A model generated the notes under the pieces. It searched no databases and was not told the origin of the DNA. It worked only from the letters and a program-made list of their open reading frames with translations. A program made the translations under genes and the position numbers. A stretch of 64,000 nucleotides of DNA from a virus. The stretch covers positions 32,001-96,000 of the IMG/VR virus record IMGVR_UViG_3300031368_000001; one strand, written 5' to 3'. Shown here in pieces: positions 13,212-18,750 of the stretch (the stretch's first letter is position 1; the number at the start of each line of letters is the position of its first letter).

Positions 13212-14615
13212 ATGAACCAAGACATTCTTACTAAAATAACCACAGCCCAAAAAATTCTCATTCTCGATTATTCATTCTGGGGAAGTCTCGCTCTGCGTCT
13301 TACTCTAAAAGAGGACGAAACCTGTAAGACCGGTTGGACTGATGGAGTTACTCTTGGGTATAATCCACACTGGATCGAGACTCTCTCACACAAAGGAACC
13401 GTGGCCTGGTGCGCTCATGAAGTATGCCATCCAATGTGTCAGCATCATACAAGAAGAGCTGGAAGAAATCATAGGTTATGGCAAACGGCTGCTGATTATG
13501 TGGTTAACAGTATACTTGTAAAAGAAAAATTTGATTTACCCGGCCAGCCTCTCTACGATCCACGCTTCAATGGTATGAGTACAGATGAGGTATATAGTAT
13601 TTTAGAGAAAGAAATGGAGGAGGAAAGGGAAAATAGAAGGAAAGAAATCAATGAAAAAAATAAAAGTGAAAATAAAGGAGTTAAAGGAAATAACTTACCT
13701 GATAGCTCTACTGATCCTGGCAACGAGCCTATGGATGACAATTCAGATGATGGGAATGCTGGGAATGATAGAGACACCAACGATAATGGTAAAGATGATG
13801 AAAAGAATCAAAAAGACAGCGGAGGTGATTTAGGGAATAACGCCAATAAGAGCAAAGATGATCCTGATGATAACGATCCTGATAATAATGATCCTGATCC
13901 TGGCAACTGCGGAGAAGTAAGAGACTATCCAGGCAAGGATAATGACCCCTCCCCTTCTGACATGAAACAGCAAGAACAAGATTGGAAAATAGCAACTGTG
14001 CAAGCTGCAACACAAGCTAAACAACATGGCAACATGCCCGCAGGTCTCGATGCTGAAATTCAAAACATAGTAGAACCAAAAGTAGATCCGCGAGATTTAT
14101 TACAAAAATTTGTGGCCATGTCTGCTAAGAATGACTTCACGTGGTCCATGCCAAATAGAAAATATATTCCTCATGGATTATACCTACCCAGTATGAAGAG
14201 TGAAGAACTGGGAACTGTGGTTTTAGTTTTAGATACATCGATTAGTATCGGTCAGAAAGAACTGGATAATTTTTCAGCGATCGTCTCAGCTATTCTGGAA
14301 ACGTATATTATAGATGCGATTGTTCTTTACTGTGACACGAAAATATACGAACCTGAGTATTTCAAGAGAGAAGATTTACCCCTGAAACTAAAAATGAAAG
14401 GACGGGGTGGAACGAATTTTGCGCCACCTTTCTTGTTCGTAAAAGAACATGACATAGATCCGGTATGCCTGATTTATTTAACAGATCTTGAATGTAATGA
14501 CTATCCAGATTTTGAACCAAGTTATCCGGTGATGTGGATATGTACGGACCCACCGGAATATGTATATGATATACCACCATTCGGGGAAATAATATATATA
14601 GATTTAGAGAAGTGA
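13212..14615 (+). CDS. Metallopeptidase-like (DUF2201 N) + VWA domain protein
   Basis: TGWTDG, HEVCH (HExxH), D/N-rich linker, MIDAS DTSIS, GRGGTNF, YLTD; ATG at 13212 more likely than TTG at 13191. Confidence 0.9.
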   Translation: MNQDILTKITTAQKILILDYSFWGSLALRLTLKEDETCKTGWTDGVTLGYNPHWIETLSHKGTVAWCAHEVCHPMCQHHTRRAGRNHRLWQTAADYVVNSILVKEKFDLPGQPLYDPRFNGMSTDEVYSILEKEMEEERENRRKEINEKNKSENKGVKGNNLPDSSTDPGNEPMDDNSDDGNAGNDRDTNDNGKDDEKNQKDSGGDLGNNANKSKDDPDDNDPDNNDPDPGNCGEVRDYPGKDNDPSPSDMKQQEQDWKIATVQAATQAKQHGNMPAGLDAEIQNIVEPKVDPRDLLQKFVAMSAKNDFTWSMPNRKYIPHGLYLPSMKSEELGTVVLVLDTSISIGQKELDNFSAIVSAILETYIIDAIVLYCDTKIYEPEYFKREDLPLKLKMKGRGGTNFAPPFLFVKEHDIDPVCLIYLTDLECNDYPDFEPSYPVMWICTDPPEYVYDIPPFGEIIYIDLEK

Positions 14616-15159
14616 TGATGCCTAAATATAAAGTAGTTTTGTTGTCGCCAATGCTAACCTGGGAGAAAGTAGATGCTGAATCAACTGAAAAGGCTGAAGA
14701 AGAATGTTGGAATGATCCATGCCTTGATCGAATAGATTTGACAGACGGGCCATTTTATATGGCCGCAGAGGAAATTGAGGAGGATGAAATTGAGTAAACC
14801 TAATCTCCTTGTAGTTACCTTCTTATATCTTTACTTTGTTGTCCGCGCGTAACCTTTTTTTTAGAAATACTACCTAAAGAAAGAGAGAAAGAATAAATGA
14901 AAATAGCCATAGTTAGCTCAAAAGACCTTGGCCTCAACTGCTGGTCACCAAAAAGATTTCTTGGATCCTGTGATCAGTGTGATAAAGTAATGAAATGTAA
15001 ATTACCAGAAGCCCGAGCAGGGAGAATTAAGTTACTAAATGGTAAAATTACTGAAGCTCATAAAATAGTGAAAAAATTAGAAGAGCAGAGATTCCAGGAA
15101 GTGAAAGAAGGGTTGAGGGAAGAGAGTAAATTGTAATTTGTTTATATACAGATATTTTT

Positions 15160-15182
15160 CTGGTTAATACTGTGCGTTATAC
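15160..15182 (+). mobile_element. Right half of an attC site (L'-R')
   Basis: CTGGTTAA-TACTGTGC-GTTATAC. Confidence 0.6.
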
Positions 15183-15200
15183 GCAAAAGGAAACTTAAAT

Positions 15201-15392
15201 ATGAAATATATATATGCTGTACTCAGGGAGACAGGTGGAGCACACAAAAGTATGGACGTAATGAGCGTGTGGACAAACAAAAAACTCGCCCAGAAAGAGG
15301 CTAATAAATTGAATGTATTAGCATCGGAGGGCTATGAATGTGAAGTGCGTAGATGGATTGTAAATGAAACTGGTGATACAATTAACTGGTAG
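15201..15392 (+). CDS. Cassette 1 hypothetical protein
   Basis: Bounded by GTTATACGC (15176) and its exact reverse complement GCGTATAAC (15392). Confidence 0.75.
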   Translation: MKYIYAVLRETGGAHKSMDVMSVWTNKKLAQKEANKLNVLASEGYECEVRRWIVNETGDTINW

Positions 15393-15393
15393 C

Positions 15394-15452
15394 GTATAAC
15401 CATGCCCCTGAAGCCAACAGCAAATAGCTGCGGCTTACCGGCGGCGTTAGGA
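15394..15452 (+). mobile_element. attC site (59 bp)
   Basis: GTATAAC...T(G)AAGCC...GGCTTA...GTTAGGA; imperfect palindrome with extrahelical base. Confidence 0.8.
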
Positions 15453-15459
15453 GTCAACA

Positions 15460-15729
15460 ATGAGTGTTGTCACAGATATTATTTTGGTTACTGCTATTGA
15501 GGATGGCGCATATAGACCATCATTCGACTTAGTTAAAGTCGACCAATACGCAGGCGGAGGCAAGGCGGTACAGTGCGATGTGTTTATGTCAGCCGTTAAC
15601 TACTTGGTTTTAGAGGATTTACTTGATTGGTTCAAGTCTGTAAGATGGGAATATCCAGAACAGGTGCAACTTTTTGTTAAAGGCGAACACGACGACAAGT
15701 TTGCTGTGTACTGCCCTGAAAACTCCTAA
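15460..15729 (+). CDS. Cassette 2 hypothetical protein
   Basis: Bounded by GTTAGGAGT (15446) and ACTCCTAAC (15722); stop TAA lies inside R''. Confidence 0.8.
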   Translation: MSVVTDIILVTAIEDGAYRPSFDLVKVDQYAGGGKAVQCDVFMSAVNYLVLEDLLDWFKSVRWEYPEQVQLFVKGEHDDKFAVYCPENS

Positions 15730-15790
15730 CCAATCGTTCAACAACCGACCGCCGATACAGCCCTGTGGCGGGTTAACTCAAACGTTAGGT
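15724..15790 (+). mobile_element. attC site (67 bp)
   Basis: TCCTAAC-CAATCG-TT(C)AAC...CCGCC/GGCGG...GTTAA-CTCAAAC-GTTAGGT. Confidence 0.85.
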
Positions 15791-15954
15791 GGCAAGCATG
15801 AGAAAGCCTTTGACAGGGCATAGGCCATATCCGAGTGAAAGGATAGTACAGCCCATGGATAAGGCATCACACATGCAAGTCTGGTTGGCTATAACTATTA
15901 TTGGCAATTAGCATTGCTGGTAGTTTAGGCAGTTCGATTCTGCCATTGCCACCT
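15788..15954 (+). ncRNA. tRNA-like RNA with expanded D-arm region (cassette 3)
   Basis: GGTGGCAA/TTGCCACC terminal stem; T-arm GGCAG-TTCGATT-CTGCC (15928-15944); long hairpin before it; no + strand ORF in the track. Confidence 0.6.
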
Positions 15955-16012
15955 AATAAATCCCTGAACCAGACGCCATAAAGCTCGGCGCTGGTTAGCT
16001 CAAGCGTTAAGG
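15951..16012 (+). mobile_element. attC site (62 bp)
   Basis: ACCTAAT-AAATCC-CT(G)AACCAG(A)CGCC...GGCG-CTGGTTAG-CTCAAGC-GTTAAGG; two extrahelical bases at canonical positions. Confidence 0.85.
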
Positions 16013-16021
16013 AGGAAAAAA

Positions 16022-16180
16022 ATGAAAATGTCAGTAAAAGAGTTTGATTCATTGACAAAGAGAGATTTTGACAATGGAGCGGTTAGGGATGCTATTCGCA
16101 ATAGCTTAAAAGAGTGTGAAAAATTGCTTGCCTCCCAACAAGTCGTTGAAGCAGACCGCGCTAATCGCACGACTGATTAA
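16022..16180 (+). CDS. Cassette 4, 52-aa ORF reading into its attC
   Basis: SD AAGGAGG; MKMSVKEFDSLTKRDFDNGAVRDAIRNSLKECEKLLASQQVVEADRANRTTD*; below the ORF-track cutoff. Confidence 0.6.
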   Translation: MKMSVKEFDSLTKRDFDNGAVRDAIRNSLKECEKLLASQQVVEADRANRTTD

Positions 16181-16194
16181 CTCAGGCGTTATAA
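16133..16194 (+). mobile_element. attC site (62 bp)
   Basis: TCCCAAC-AAGTCG-TT(G)AAGCAG(A)...CTGATTAA-CTCAGGC-GTTATAA. Confidence 0.85.
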
Positions 16195-16207
16195 TTTAAG
16201 AGGAAAA

Positions 16208-16456
16208 ATGAAAGAAGAAAAAAAAATATGCGACATGATTTTAAGTACTGTTTCACGCTTCAATGATGCTCAAAGTATTGGGATTGAGGTTCTAGAGAAA
16301 TATAAGAACATGGATAAAGGCATAGTTCCAGAGTTGCAAGAAATCGCTTTTCATGTTCAGAGTTTAGCACGAGGCTGGCGTTCTCAGCAAGATCGGGCAG
16401 ATGAGTGTTATGAGAAATATGCTGCATATAAAAAATATTGCAATGAAAATCTATAA
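16208..16456 (+). CDS. Cassette 5 hypothetical protein (attC deleted after R'')
   Basis: Starts after GTTATA (16188); ends in CTATAAC (16451-16457). Confidence 0.7.
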   Translation: MKEEKKICDMILSTVSRFNDAQSIGIEVLEKYKNMDKGIVPELQEIAFHVQSLARGWRSQQDRADECYEKYAAYKKYCNENL

Positions 16457-16474
16457 CAATAAGGAGGAAAAACC

Positions 16475-16744
16475 ATGCCAGGAGTAATTAATTACACAAA
16501 GCTCCCAGAAAGTCTAAGAGGGGGAGCACAAAGATGGATAGAAAATGGAATAGTTCCAGGAAGTTTTCTCACAGCAGTGATCCGTAATGATCTAACAGAA
16601 AGCTTTGCACAAGCTGATTATATTAATATCACTAAATTACAAGATATTGTGCACTTCTTTTACTGGGAAGCTCCAAGCCAGTGCTGGGGCTCAAAGGAAA
16701 AGATGATTGCATGGGGGAAAAAATTTAATGAGATAAGACCATGA
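16475..16744 (+). CDS. Conserved phage hypothetical protein
   Basis: PGSFLTAVIRNDL...AD...APSQCWGS motif. Confidence 0.75.
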   Translation: MPGVINYTKLPESLRGGAQRWIENGIVPGSFLTAVIRNDLTESFAQADYINITKLQDIVHFFYWEAPSQCWGSKEKMIAWGKKFNEIRP

Positions 16745-17000
16745 ATATGAGAAGCGCTATGGCCAGCGCAAGAGCGAGAACTTTAAATGAAAAATTCCAT
16801 AAAAGTGCTGAAAACACTGTAAATAGATTACTAACAAGCCCCACACATTCAGCAAGAGTCTCTACAAAGTTAGCTAAACATATTTTGATACAACATGAAA
16901 CTCTCTTATATAATGGAATAGTATATTCTACTCACGTAAGAAATATAGGCGCTGGTGTAAAGGAATTATATTTAAAGGAATTTCATGAGGAGATAAGACC

Positions 17001-17345
17001 ATGACTGATAATGATGCCATGACCGACAATAACACCATCCGTGATGTAAACACCGTCCGTGATGTAAACACCGTCCGTGATGTAAACACCGTCCGTGATG
17101 TAATAAAATTTAAAGTACATGTGATAAGAACAGGCTGGGCAAGTTTGGATATTGCTATCGCTGCAAAAGATAAGGATAGTGCAAAAACAAAAATTATGGA
17201 TACTATTGGAGACTATGAATTCTCAGAATATGATGCTGAGTATGAAATAGAATCTATGGAGATAATACCATGACTGACAATACTATGACTGATAATACCA
17301 TGACCGATAATAATATGACTGATAATAACACCGTCCGTGATGTAA
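17001..17345 (+). repeat. 18-bp (NTVRDV) and 15-bp (MTDNT) coding tandem repeats shared by ORFs 17001-17273 and 17270-17497
   Basis: AACACCGTCCGTGATGTA x4; ATGACTGAYAATA units. Confidence 0.9.
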
Positions 17346-17506
17346 TGAAAGATCGTATCCGGGATCTGTTGGCTGGATATTTTAGGATAGATAATTTAGA
17401 TGTAGACGCTGATCTCGTAGCCAATATAGCTGATGAAGCTTTTTCGGTGACAGGGATAAGTGAGAAAGAACAGGATGAGGAGTGGAAAATTTTATAGAGG
17501 TTAGCT

Positions 17507-17577
17507 AATACAGGCAGTGATTATAAAGAGCCCCAAGAAGGAACCTGGTGTGGTTTTAATCATTGCCTGTATTTTTA
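17507..17577 (+). terminator. Long-stem hairpin, probable terminator
   Basis: AATACAGGCAGTGATTA/TAATCATTGCCTGTATT 17-bp stem followed by T residues. Confidence 0.6.
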
Positions 17578-18087
17578 TGTCTGGGTTTTCTCTTGTTCTA
17601 AGAGATCAAAAATGAAAAATAAAAGCCGGTCCTTTAGGAAATCCTTAATGGTTGTGAGAAAAAGTAGCTGTGAGAAAAAAAAAGAAAATATCATGAATAC
17701 TTACATAGGCACTTACCAGGATATGATAGAAAGAACTGTAGAGCTGATCCTTGCCGCGGCAGAAAAAATTCATAATAAAGATGCTATAAGTCGGATTTAC
17801 ACGGCCAACAGAGAGGTTGACACAAAAATTGGCAATATTATGGAGAATATCAGAAAGAAGAAGAGATCATGACTAAACAGGAAAAGCGTAAGTACTGCAT
17901 CGGCTGTAGAGACAATTTCTACAACGGCAATAATCCATATGGCATTAAGGAATGCTGGAATCTTAAAGATGCAAAATTCGTGAAAAGAAAAAAGATTCCT
18001 ATAGATTTGAGCCCACCTTATGATCATATAAAAAAACAGAAAGTTTTGAGCTGCTATGGCCAAAAGGGGTATGTATATTGGTAGTTA

Positions 18088-18182
18088 GGTGGTAAATGCT
18101 GCTTATAAGCAGAGGGTCAGCTTGTATCTGACGTTTGATAGTAAACAAAACTATCATGCAGGGTTAAATCTGTATACCACCT
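18088..18182 (+). ncRNA. Non-canonical tRNA-like cloverleaf, anticodon TGT, long variable arm (cassette)
   Basis: Acceptor GGTGGTA/TACCACC; D-arm CTGCT-TATA-AGCAG; anticodon arm GTCAG-CTTGTAT-CTGAC; variable arm TGATAGT/ACTATCA; T-arm TGCAG-GGTTAAAT-CTGTA. Confidence 0.65.
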
Positions 18183-18236
18183 AACCAACCCACTAAGCTC
18201 GATAGCTAAAATTGCTGGTTAATTCAAGCGTTAGAT
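18179..18236 (+). mobile_element. attC site (58 bp, degenerate L'')
   Basis: ACCTAAC...CTGGTTAA-TTCAAGC-GTTAGAT; right arm nearly identical to that of attC 15951-16012. Confidence 0.7.
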
Positions 18237-18253
18237 TCATCAAGGAGGTAAAC

Positions 18254-18451
18254 ATGGAAATAGACGAAATTATAAATAACTTGGGCAAAAAAATATCAAC
18301 TCCAAAAGGAAATCAATTATTAGCTGGTTTTCAAATTGCAGTGTTAATGGAAAACAATAAATTAAAAGCATATCCTCAATCAATATCATTAATCTGTTGG
18401 TCAGATAATGGTGGAAAATATATGCATTGGGCAATTGATTGTAAAAAATAA
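18254..18451 (+). CDS. Cassette hypothetical protein
   Basis: SD AAGGAGG then ATG at 18254; stop inside R''-like AAATAAC. Confidence 0.65.
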   Translation: MEIDEIINNLGKKISTPKGNQLLAGFQIAVLMENNKLKAYPQSISLICWSDNGGKYMHWAIDCKK

Positions 18452-18506
18452 CAAGCCGGTTGAGTCTAACGCTCATAAACTCGCGTGTCTTACCTCACCA
18501 TTATAC
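18446..18506 (+). mobile_element. Degenerate attC (crossover G>A)
   Basis: AAATAAC-AAGCCG-GTTGAG...CTTAC-CTCACC-ATTATAC. Confidence 0.5.
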
Positions 18507-18662
18507 ATCCTAATAGCGTCTTAACGAAAGGAAAATACCATGAAAGTAGACCTAATAGCTATTGGCTATGAATGGATCTGTCTGAAGTGTGGACATCTTA
18601 ATAATGAGTTCGAGATATTAAAAGAAGTTACCTGCGTAGAATGCGGTGAGATTTATGAAGTA

Positions 18663-18750
18663 GGTGAGACAGAACATGCGTGTGGGTGAGACAGAACATG
18701 CGTGTGGGTGAGGCAGAACATGCTTATAGGTGAGACAGAACATACTTATA
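18663..18750 (+). repeat. 22-bp tandem repeat x4
   Basis: GGTGAGACAGAACATGCGTGTG and variants; duplicates the 3' end of a Zn-ribbon ORF (18540-18689). Confidence 0.9.

Follow-up and report, generated by a model that had tools for sequence, protein, structure and literature searches.

Integron-type attC cassette arrays in the genome of an uncultured tailed phage

Introduction

Integrons are usually seen as platforms on which bacteria stockpile genes, and many of their cassettes are now known to be anti-phage defenses. The present study concerns cassette arrays of this type in viral DNA, which were found in a stretch of 64,000 nucleotides (the window; bases 32001-96000 of the linear, 108,285-bp IMG/VR viral contig IMGVR_UViG_3300031368_000001, hereafter G000) and, outside it, elsewhere on the same contig. 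The closest described systems are clusters of attC sites lacking integron integrases (CALINs) in phages. In a survey of 10,705 isolated NCBI phage genomes with a CALIN threshold of at least two sites, Qi, Rajabal, Ghaly, Tetu and Gillings (2023, Front Microbiol; PMC9892861) reported CALINs, as short attC clusters in a few of the phages, and phage attC sites that are substrates of IntI1, and also described a Shewanella prophage that has an integrase and in which the same attI starts both its integron and a CALIN. Besides, the integrases IntI1-3 were reported to insert cassettes at 5′-GWT-3′ genome sites, the attG route, in work on the E. coli chromosome (10.1101/2022.09.11.507474).

A first-pass annotation, which was made from the letters of the window alone, had noticed an attC-type array at 15160-16457 and had presented it as a phage-borne cassette-exchange system. 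Since CALINs in virulent phages, including the recombination of phage attC sites by IntI1, were published in 2023 (PMC9892861), the arrays of G000 are of a known kind and their novelty had been overstated. The analysis below establishes that the repeats are genuine attC sites, that the units between them are genuine integron cassettes, and that the arrays are CALINs in a phage; we are fairly confident of the whole picture, namely that these integron cassette arrays lie within early/accessory gene blocks of a tailed phage.

Results

The repeats of G000 belong to the attC family

Sites of the attC family carry an R′′ box of the consensus RYYYAAC and an R′ box of the consensus GTTRRRY, and have a length of about 57-141 bp. 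G000 contains three blocks of such repeats, two in the window (array 1) and one outside it (array 2), with 4, 2, and 11 sites, respectively, so that every block has at least two clustered sites without a nearby integrase and qualifies as a CALIN. Fifteen of the sites are strong, with lengths of 58-72 bp, and a further two to three are decayed. In an alignment of 18 sites, comprising these 15 and three from the metagenome contig L012, TAAC, a conserved GAC, and GGC..GTTA were found invariant or nearly so, the exceptions being AAT in site A3 and ATT in site B9. Comparing the left arm with the reverse complement of the right arm revealed a common geometry: paired R boxes are followed by an unpaired spacer of 5-6 nt, an L box that is one base longer on the R′′-L′′ arm, six pairs, a second bulged A (that of GAC), and a variable stem-loop. 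The second bulged A of GAC is also present in the attC of aadA2.

The raw MAFFT alignment gave no structure with RNAalifold, as the arms were off by one column between subtypes; in place of that output, the attC structure was set by hand and the realignment was guided by the model. The attC pairing was formed in 82% of the alignment cells, compared with 28-45% when the partners were slid, and 10 of the 17 attC pairs had changes on both sides. The covariation score was 0.26, versus 0.04-0.09 with slid partners, and none of 500 shuffles reached the observed score.

Two covariance models were employed, R1 built from the phage-side sites and R2 built from bacterial array sites alone (66 sites of 13 loci). 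The bacterial loci had been retrieved with a 17-nt right-half pattern taken from the phage, and most sites in those arrays are without that motif. On the whole contig, the matches of R1 were limited to the two arrays and included two degenerate sites absent from its seed, while R2 recovered 13 phage sites at E < 0.01 (23-54 bits); elsewhere in the 108-kb contig, the attC models returned nothing but one partial match of 14.5 bits (E 0.64). Conversely, R1 detected evenly spaced, same-strand arrays in the bacterial loci, which come from many phyla, for example at least 17 matches in the locus L111 and eight in a Thermomonas contig. IntI above the TIGR02249 cut-off was present in four of the five source genomes tested, and in one of them IntI and the array share a contig of 6 kb. 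By BLAST against plasmids, site A4 (16133-16194) matched the aadA2 attC, located in the aadA2-qacEdelta1 gap of a class 1 integron, with 81.8% identity over 55 nt. Further, R1 gave exactly three matches on the dfrA12-gcuF-aadA2 class 1 integron, one behind each gene, with the aadA2 attC scoring 47.8 bits. These reciprocal matches and the aadA2 similarity indicate that the phage sites are of the same family as the textbook attC, and the covariance-model check proposed in the first-pass annotation was thus passed in both directions.

A competing explanation takes the repeats for phage-specific intergenic hairpins, that is, terminators or RNA-processing sites. It can point to the position of the sites behind nearly every small ORF and to the unremarkable minimum free energy (MFE) of single sites: the proposed folding of individual sites gave no significant energies on either strand (z −0.6 to −1.6). 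Such energies fit the attC hairpins, because these contain an unpaired spacer and bulged bases, and single-site energies are of little use as a test for attC. Given that the model made from bacteria only matches the phage sites, that the phage model matches class 1 attC sites, that A4 so closely resembles the aadA2 site, and that the complementarity of cassette ends described below would have no role in a terminator, we regard the hairpin explanation as extremely improbable.

Layout of the cassette blocks

In total, 18 cassettes were identified in G000, including 5 and 2 in the two blocks of the window and 11 in array 2. Fifteen of them contain a single small ORF that has its own ribosome-binding site (RBS), two are ORF-less and structured, and one has only a 40-aa ORF (15789-15911). 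The first block of array 1 (15140-16457; all window features given here are on the plus strand) opens with a 39-bp leader unit and contains four attC sites, of which three are strong and one is degenerate, one R′′ remnant, and five cassettes. For this block, the first-pass annotation had listed four complete sites of 59-67 bp, one right half, and one remnant. All these elements are present where it had placed them, with the qualifications that the fourth site (16133-16194) is degenerate and that the right half (15160-15179) is part of the leader. It had also described five units, mostly with one ORF whose stop falls in or near R′′, and indeed four of the five carry a single ORF (63, 89, 52, and 82 aa) with the stop in or just before the site.

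The leader unit (15140-15178) begins with GTTTATATAC and has an L′-like box GGTTAAT, a 7-nt spacer, and the crossover GTT at 15176-15178. Cassette 1 (15176-15400) runs from this G|TT to its own R′′ AAC, with ends complementary over 9 nt, and its 63-aa ORF (15201-15392) has no Pfam or PHROG match. It is followed by the 59-bp site A1 (15394-15452; R1 52.7 bits; R2 23.5 bits, E 0.0035) and by cassette 2 (15446-15730), the own ends of which are also complementary over 9 nt and the 89-aa ORF of which (15460-15729) stops inside R′′. Behind the 67-bp site A2 (15724-15790; R1 45.8 bits; R2 50.2 bits, E 1.6e-9) lies cassette 3 (15784-15957), which is RNA-like and without an ORF, has its R′′ mutated to AAT, and has own ends complementary at 11/12. 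The 62-bp site A3 (15951-16012; R1 54.8 bits; R2 48.2 bits) precedes cassette 4 (16006-16139), whose 52-aa ORF (16022-16180) extends into its own attC, the degenerate but complete A4 (16133-16194; R1 24.6 bits; R2 31.9 bits). Cassette 5 (16188-16457) carries an 82-aa ORF (16208-16456); of its attC, only the R′′ remnant TATAAC at the cassette end (16452-16457) survives, and downstream of this remnant, no match was found with either attC model.

Array 1 restarts at 18084-18512 with two further cassettes (block 1b), after 1.6 kb of ordinary phage ORFs (16475-18084), four translationally coupled by overlapping ATGA junctions and none bounded by attC. Cassette 6 (18084-18185) has no ORF and is predicted to form a cloverleaf-like RNA; its starting G|TT overlaps the stop of the upstream gene, and its own ends are complementary over 11 nt. 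Site A6, of 58 bp (18179-18236; R1 45.3 bits; R2 15.9 bits, E 0.24), separates it from cassette 7 (18230-18512), which has a 65-aa ORF (18254-18451) and a decayed terminal attC (R1 16.7 bits at 18446-18506). The likely R′′ of cassette 7, judged by eye with an 8/9 match, is GAGTCTAAC at 18463-18471. Array 2, with its 11 cassettes, occupies L001 6953-10399 on the minus strand, outside the window, 59 kb from array 1 on the same contig and within 2 kb of the contig end; L001 9831-9894 is one of its strong attC sites. Both arrays run in the same direction as the neighboring phage genes, and this common orientation makes read-through expression of the cassettes probable.

Two kinds of repeats next to the cassettes were also observed. 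Just past the end of block 1b, at 18650-18750 of the window, a unit of about 24 nt (GTGAGACAGAACATGC-like) is present in about four tandem copies. Between the two blocks, the four coupled small ORFs at 16475-17497 have common junctions and coding repeats of 15-18 nt (TDN/RDV-type), and salt-marsh contigs join these paralogues from 16714 to 16988 and from 16744 to 17085, which points to unequal recombination independent of attC.

With respect to the carrier, CheckV estimates the G000 contig to be about 77% complete. The window encodes a portal protein and the large terminase subunit, and a Prim-Pol primase, an SNF2 helicase, and a DUF2201/VWA protein are encoded close to array 1; based on these genes, the contig was assigned to a tailed phage. 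The runs in which 97-99% of the words sampled from the stretch recur come from salt-marsh metagenomes of 2019.

Cassette ends record a crossover at G|TT

To evaluate the crossover position, the first bases of each cassette, from the G of the preceding GTT, were compared with the end of its own R′′, and R′′ against the sequence after its own site served as the control. A complementary run of at least 9 nt between own ends was found in 8 of 17 G000 cassettes, with a maximum of 14 or more, and two other cassettes, whose core has a point change, matched at 9/12 and 11/12; in the control, by comparison, the run never exceeded 6 nt. The four examples given in the first-pass annotation (9/9, 9/9, 11/12, and the GTTATA/TATAAC ends of cassette 5, read from the sequence) all hold, and its claim of an IntI footprint at G/TT is borne out at the scale of the whole contig. 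As the complementarity spans a whole cassette, which is expected from the insertion of circular cassettes, it places the crossover at G|TT.

A leader unit heads both arrays

The heads of both arrays are occupied by the leader, in two copies that are identical at 36 of 39 positions, and the genes flanking it in arrays 1 and 2 are unrelated. The unit starts with GTTTATATA, contains GGTTAAT, and is ended by GTT seven bases further on; the array 2 copy is located at L001 10399-10361 on the minus strand. A third copy was found in the metagenome contig L012, where it is followed by three different well-formed cassettes, and a fourth, about 80% identical, in G006, a 50-kb viral contig. The G006 copy lies right behind the GTT of a degenerate attC (L163 650-770) and thus has G|TT at either side, resembling a mini-cassette of 36 nt. 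In G000, both leaders likewise have GTT at their left edge, and leader identity ends at GTT in all four copies.

The leader gave no stable fold on either strand and no match with R1 or R2, and it was absent from all fetched bacterial loci; exact and degenerate patterns found it, among viral contigs, in G006 only, and 10 of the 11 matches of a leader 20-mer in metagenomes were unrelated. A sigma-70-like promoter that could serve as a Pc for the cassettes was not detected at the leader, promoter-like counts being equal to the shuffled expectation, where the sigma-70 type may not be that of the host. In double-stranded form, the leader mimics a folded attC in its L and R boxes but lacks the bulges, as does an attI-type simple site, and it is a candidate double-stranded docking (attI-like) site. 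The other starts are plainer: block 1b opens at a bare GTT (18084) that overlaps the stop codon of the preceding gene, and the G006 array opens at a GTT lying within the 3′ end of a gene, both of which fit the published attG route (10.1101/2022.09.11.507474). Just upstream of the array 2 leader (L001 10425-10775, minus strand), a 116-aa protein with an RF-1 domain and a GGQ motif, ArfB-like (peptidyl-tRNA hydrolase), is encoded.

No integrase is found on the recovered contig

The lack of an integrase in the window, stated in the first-pass annotation, holds for the whole 108-kb contig: a profile search with TIGR02249 and PF00589 over this sequence, about 77% complete, gave no candidate, and tblastn of four bacterial IntI proteins against it returned noise only. 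With no integrase on the recovered contig, dependence on a host enzyme is probable. Alternatively, G000 could be a complete phage-borne integron, with its own integrase in the unassembled ~23% of the genome and the leader as the attI of that integrase. This is compatible with a linear contig of such completeness, in which array 2 lies so near the end, and the same leader heading both arrays has a parallel in the Shewanella prophage that does have an integrase. On the other hand, neither leader has an integrase beside it, unlike the classical adjacency of intI and attI; upstream of array 2, small ORFs only are present over 1.9 kb, the RF-1-domain gene among them; and IntI above cut-off was found in none of the five tested IMG/VR contigs with arrays, that is, in G006 and four other array-bearing viral contigs. 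We therefore consider a phage-borne integron unlikely.

Additionally, one 17-nt attC motif retrieved from IMG/VR the contigs L142-L157, of which at least 10 carry arrays of 2-10 attC by the bacterial model. Some of these array contigs may be host DNA at prophage edges.

Contigs from the habitat suggest cassette replacement, and an unrelated phage contig has the same leader and attC types

Logan contigs of four salt-marsh runs were compared with positions 14600-18700 of the window; these are assembled contigs and attest to the existence of a form rather than to its frequency or its carrier genome. Contigs matching the leader diverge before 15140 and after 15178/15179, and contigs matching A1 diverge before 15396 and after 15448-15451. 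By-eye comparison recognized at least four of the diverging tails as cassette starts that occur in neither G000 array. Moreover, a 1266-nt contig that is about 91% identical over the gene at 14897-15136 and the leader continues into another first cassette, and two runs contain a variant in which 13 other letters replace 18084-18512, with its left edge at the G of GTT and its right edge at 18512/18513. The similarity of related contigs accordingly breaks at G|TT, as had been proposed for relatives in the first-pass annotation.

Such variants could also arise if cassettes once made by IntI were now exchanged between co-infecting phages through homologous recombination across the ~60-bp attC sites and the leader. 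Short homologies are usable by phage recombination systems, within a subtype, attC sites share 80-92% identity when the two arrays, or G000 and G006, are compared, and the contig data are compatible with either mechanism. However, the breaks coincide with G|TT or lie within 1-3 nt of it and are not scattered over the 60-bp sites, and most cassettes have kept the complementarity of their own ends, which random crossovers inside attC would erode. Homologous shuffling is therefore judged improbable, and integrase-type crossover at G|TT is preferred.

G006 shares no backbone genes with G000. Common to both genomes are only the leader, the attC subtypes, and a homologue of the cassette 4 ORF, which in G006 shows 54% identity and is located behind an attC. 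Further synteny comparisons were sought and yielded the following: relatives of the neighboring DUF2201/VWA protein at only 28% identity; two relatives of the 79-aa ORF upstream at 40% identity, without common flanks and without attC; and no viral loci for the 89-aa cassette protein and the RNA ligase. Against GenBank phages, the array had no DNA match.

Cassette cargo has the GC of the phage and includes RNA-like units

The GC content of the cassette ORFs (0.370) equals that of the genome (0.369), and the attC sites have about 0.5. A Pfam/PHROG match was obtained for one cassette ORF only, that in cassette 7 of array 2 (L001 8144-8689, minus strand), which encodes a full-length phage-type RNA ligase (phrog_14301, E 5e-58; Pfam RLIG1); a function as a counter to tRNA-cleaving defenses is possible. 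The 89-aa protein of cassette 2 has eight homologues among 5.8 billion clusters, and an identical protein is encoded on three other contigs. Two cassettes form RNA folds of high stability, cassette 3 with −64.3 kcal/mol (z −4.9) and cassette 6 with z −5.3. Both folds are branched and tRNA-like, with a T-arm-like hairpin and a closing stem made from the cassette ends. ARAGORN and Rfam made no calls on the window, and the equivalent G006 cassette (L163 1035-1161) is matched by the Rfam tRNA model at 33.5 bits (threshold 29), with a 66-nt insert.

These features bear on a further explanation, by which the arrays are inert relics: illegitimate recombination would have captured a fragment or two of an integron from the host chromosome, and these would since have been carried passively, without further exchange in the phage. 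Published Vibrio prophages did take up pieces of host integrons, and the missing integrase and the decay of several attC sites would agree with it. Yet one or two passive captures would hardly account for three separate blocks that each begin at GTT, for cassettes with the GC of the phage between attC sites of about 0.5, or for a full-length RNA ligase of phage type. Exchange is also suggested by the different cassettes that follow the leader in L012 and in the 91%-identical relative, by the variant without the 18084 block, and by the same sites and leader in an unrelated phage contig. The relic explanation is hence quite unlikely.

Discussion

The evidence assembled here argues for genuine integron cassette arrays in the G000 phage, and from it we infer that a recombinase supplied by the host would exchange the cassettes while the DNA is in the phage. 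Several observations weigh against this interpretation. Neither an integrase nor any tyrosine recombinase is encoded on the contig, and the cassette recombination is deduced from sequence. The leader stands mid-array in G006 rather than at a head. The population evidence was obtained from assemblies instead of raw reads; cross-mapping from array 2 of G000 itself explains some of the diverging tails, and others could stem from different phages or bacteria sharing these sites. Finally, decay is seen at 16133-16194, at 16452-16457, at 18446-18512, and in B9 (ATT for GTT), and with several sites decayed, part of the array is possibly frozen.

As a working mechanism, the recombinase would act in trans, being either a host integron integrase or the product of a gene in the missing ~23% of the genome. 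New cassettes would enter at the 39-bp, non-hairpin leader ending in GTT, in the manner of attI, or at plain GTT triplets by the attG route, and the erosion of distal attC sites would fix older cassettes in place. The pool of cassettes may be common to unrelated phages of one habitat, and would probably supply host-takeover or counter-defense functions, one cassette being the phage-type RNA ligase. Extending this, we tentatively propose, as a possibility short of even chances, that unrelated phages of one habitat take part in an integron cassette economy of their own: a phage-like pool of small proteins, RNA ligase, and tRNA-like RNAs, a non-hairpin leader with G|TT at its borders that can seed arrays anywhere in a phage genome, and a host integrase hijacked in trans and probably induced by infection, by which accessory and counter-defense genes are swapped. 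If true, such an economy would be the phage counterpart of the bacterial biobank of defense cassettes. More generally, if the exchange occurs in phage DNA, integron recombination would be a route by which phages trade host-takeover and counter-defense genes, and cassettes would also move from one bacterial lineage to another. Concrete substrates for bench work are available in the strong sites and the leader.

Set beside known systems, the arrays of G000 resemble the classical integrons, both those of class 1 and the sedentary chromosomal ones, in attC architecture and consensus, in the G|TT crossover, and in promoterless cassettes with their own RBS. They differ from them in that intI is missing from the G000 contig, that the leader is without a sigma-70-like promoter, and that the carrier is a phage; in addition, the attC sites of G000 are heterogeneous, with at least two subtypes, whereas those of sedentary arrays are homogeneous. 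The bare GTT at 18084, the GTT in the gene end of G006, and the GTT at the left edge of the leader are like attG insertion, with the difference that the attG work concerned the E. coli chromosome (10.1101/2022.09.11.507474), while for G000 an insertion into phage DNA is suggested by the sequence. The nearest match is with the published phage CALINs (PMC9892861), with which G000 shares attC-bounded, co-oriented cassettes, mostly of a single ORF and of unassigned function, and the lack of an integrase. Unlike the isolated phages of that survey, G000 is uncultured; its genome of more than 108 kb has three blocks, 15 strong sites, and two to three decayed ones. Set against those CALINs are also its leader on a contig without integrase, the cassette GC equal to that of the phage, the RNA-like cassettes, and the cassette replacement in the habitat as seen at the level of contigs. 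G000 is thus an unusually large case of phage CALINs, which stands out by its leader, the sharing between phages, the phage-like GC, the RNA cassettes, and the cassette-precise variants in its habitat.

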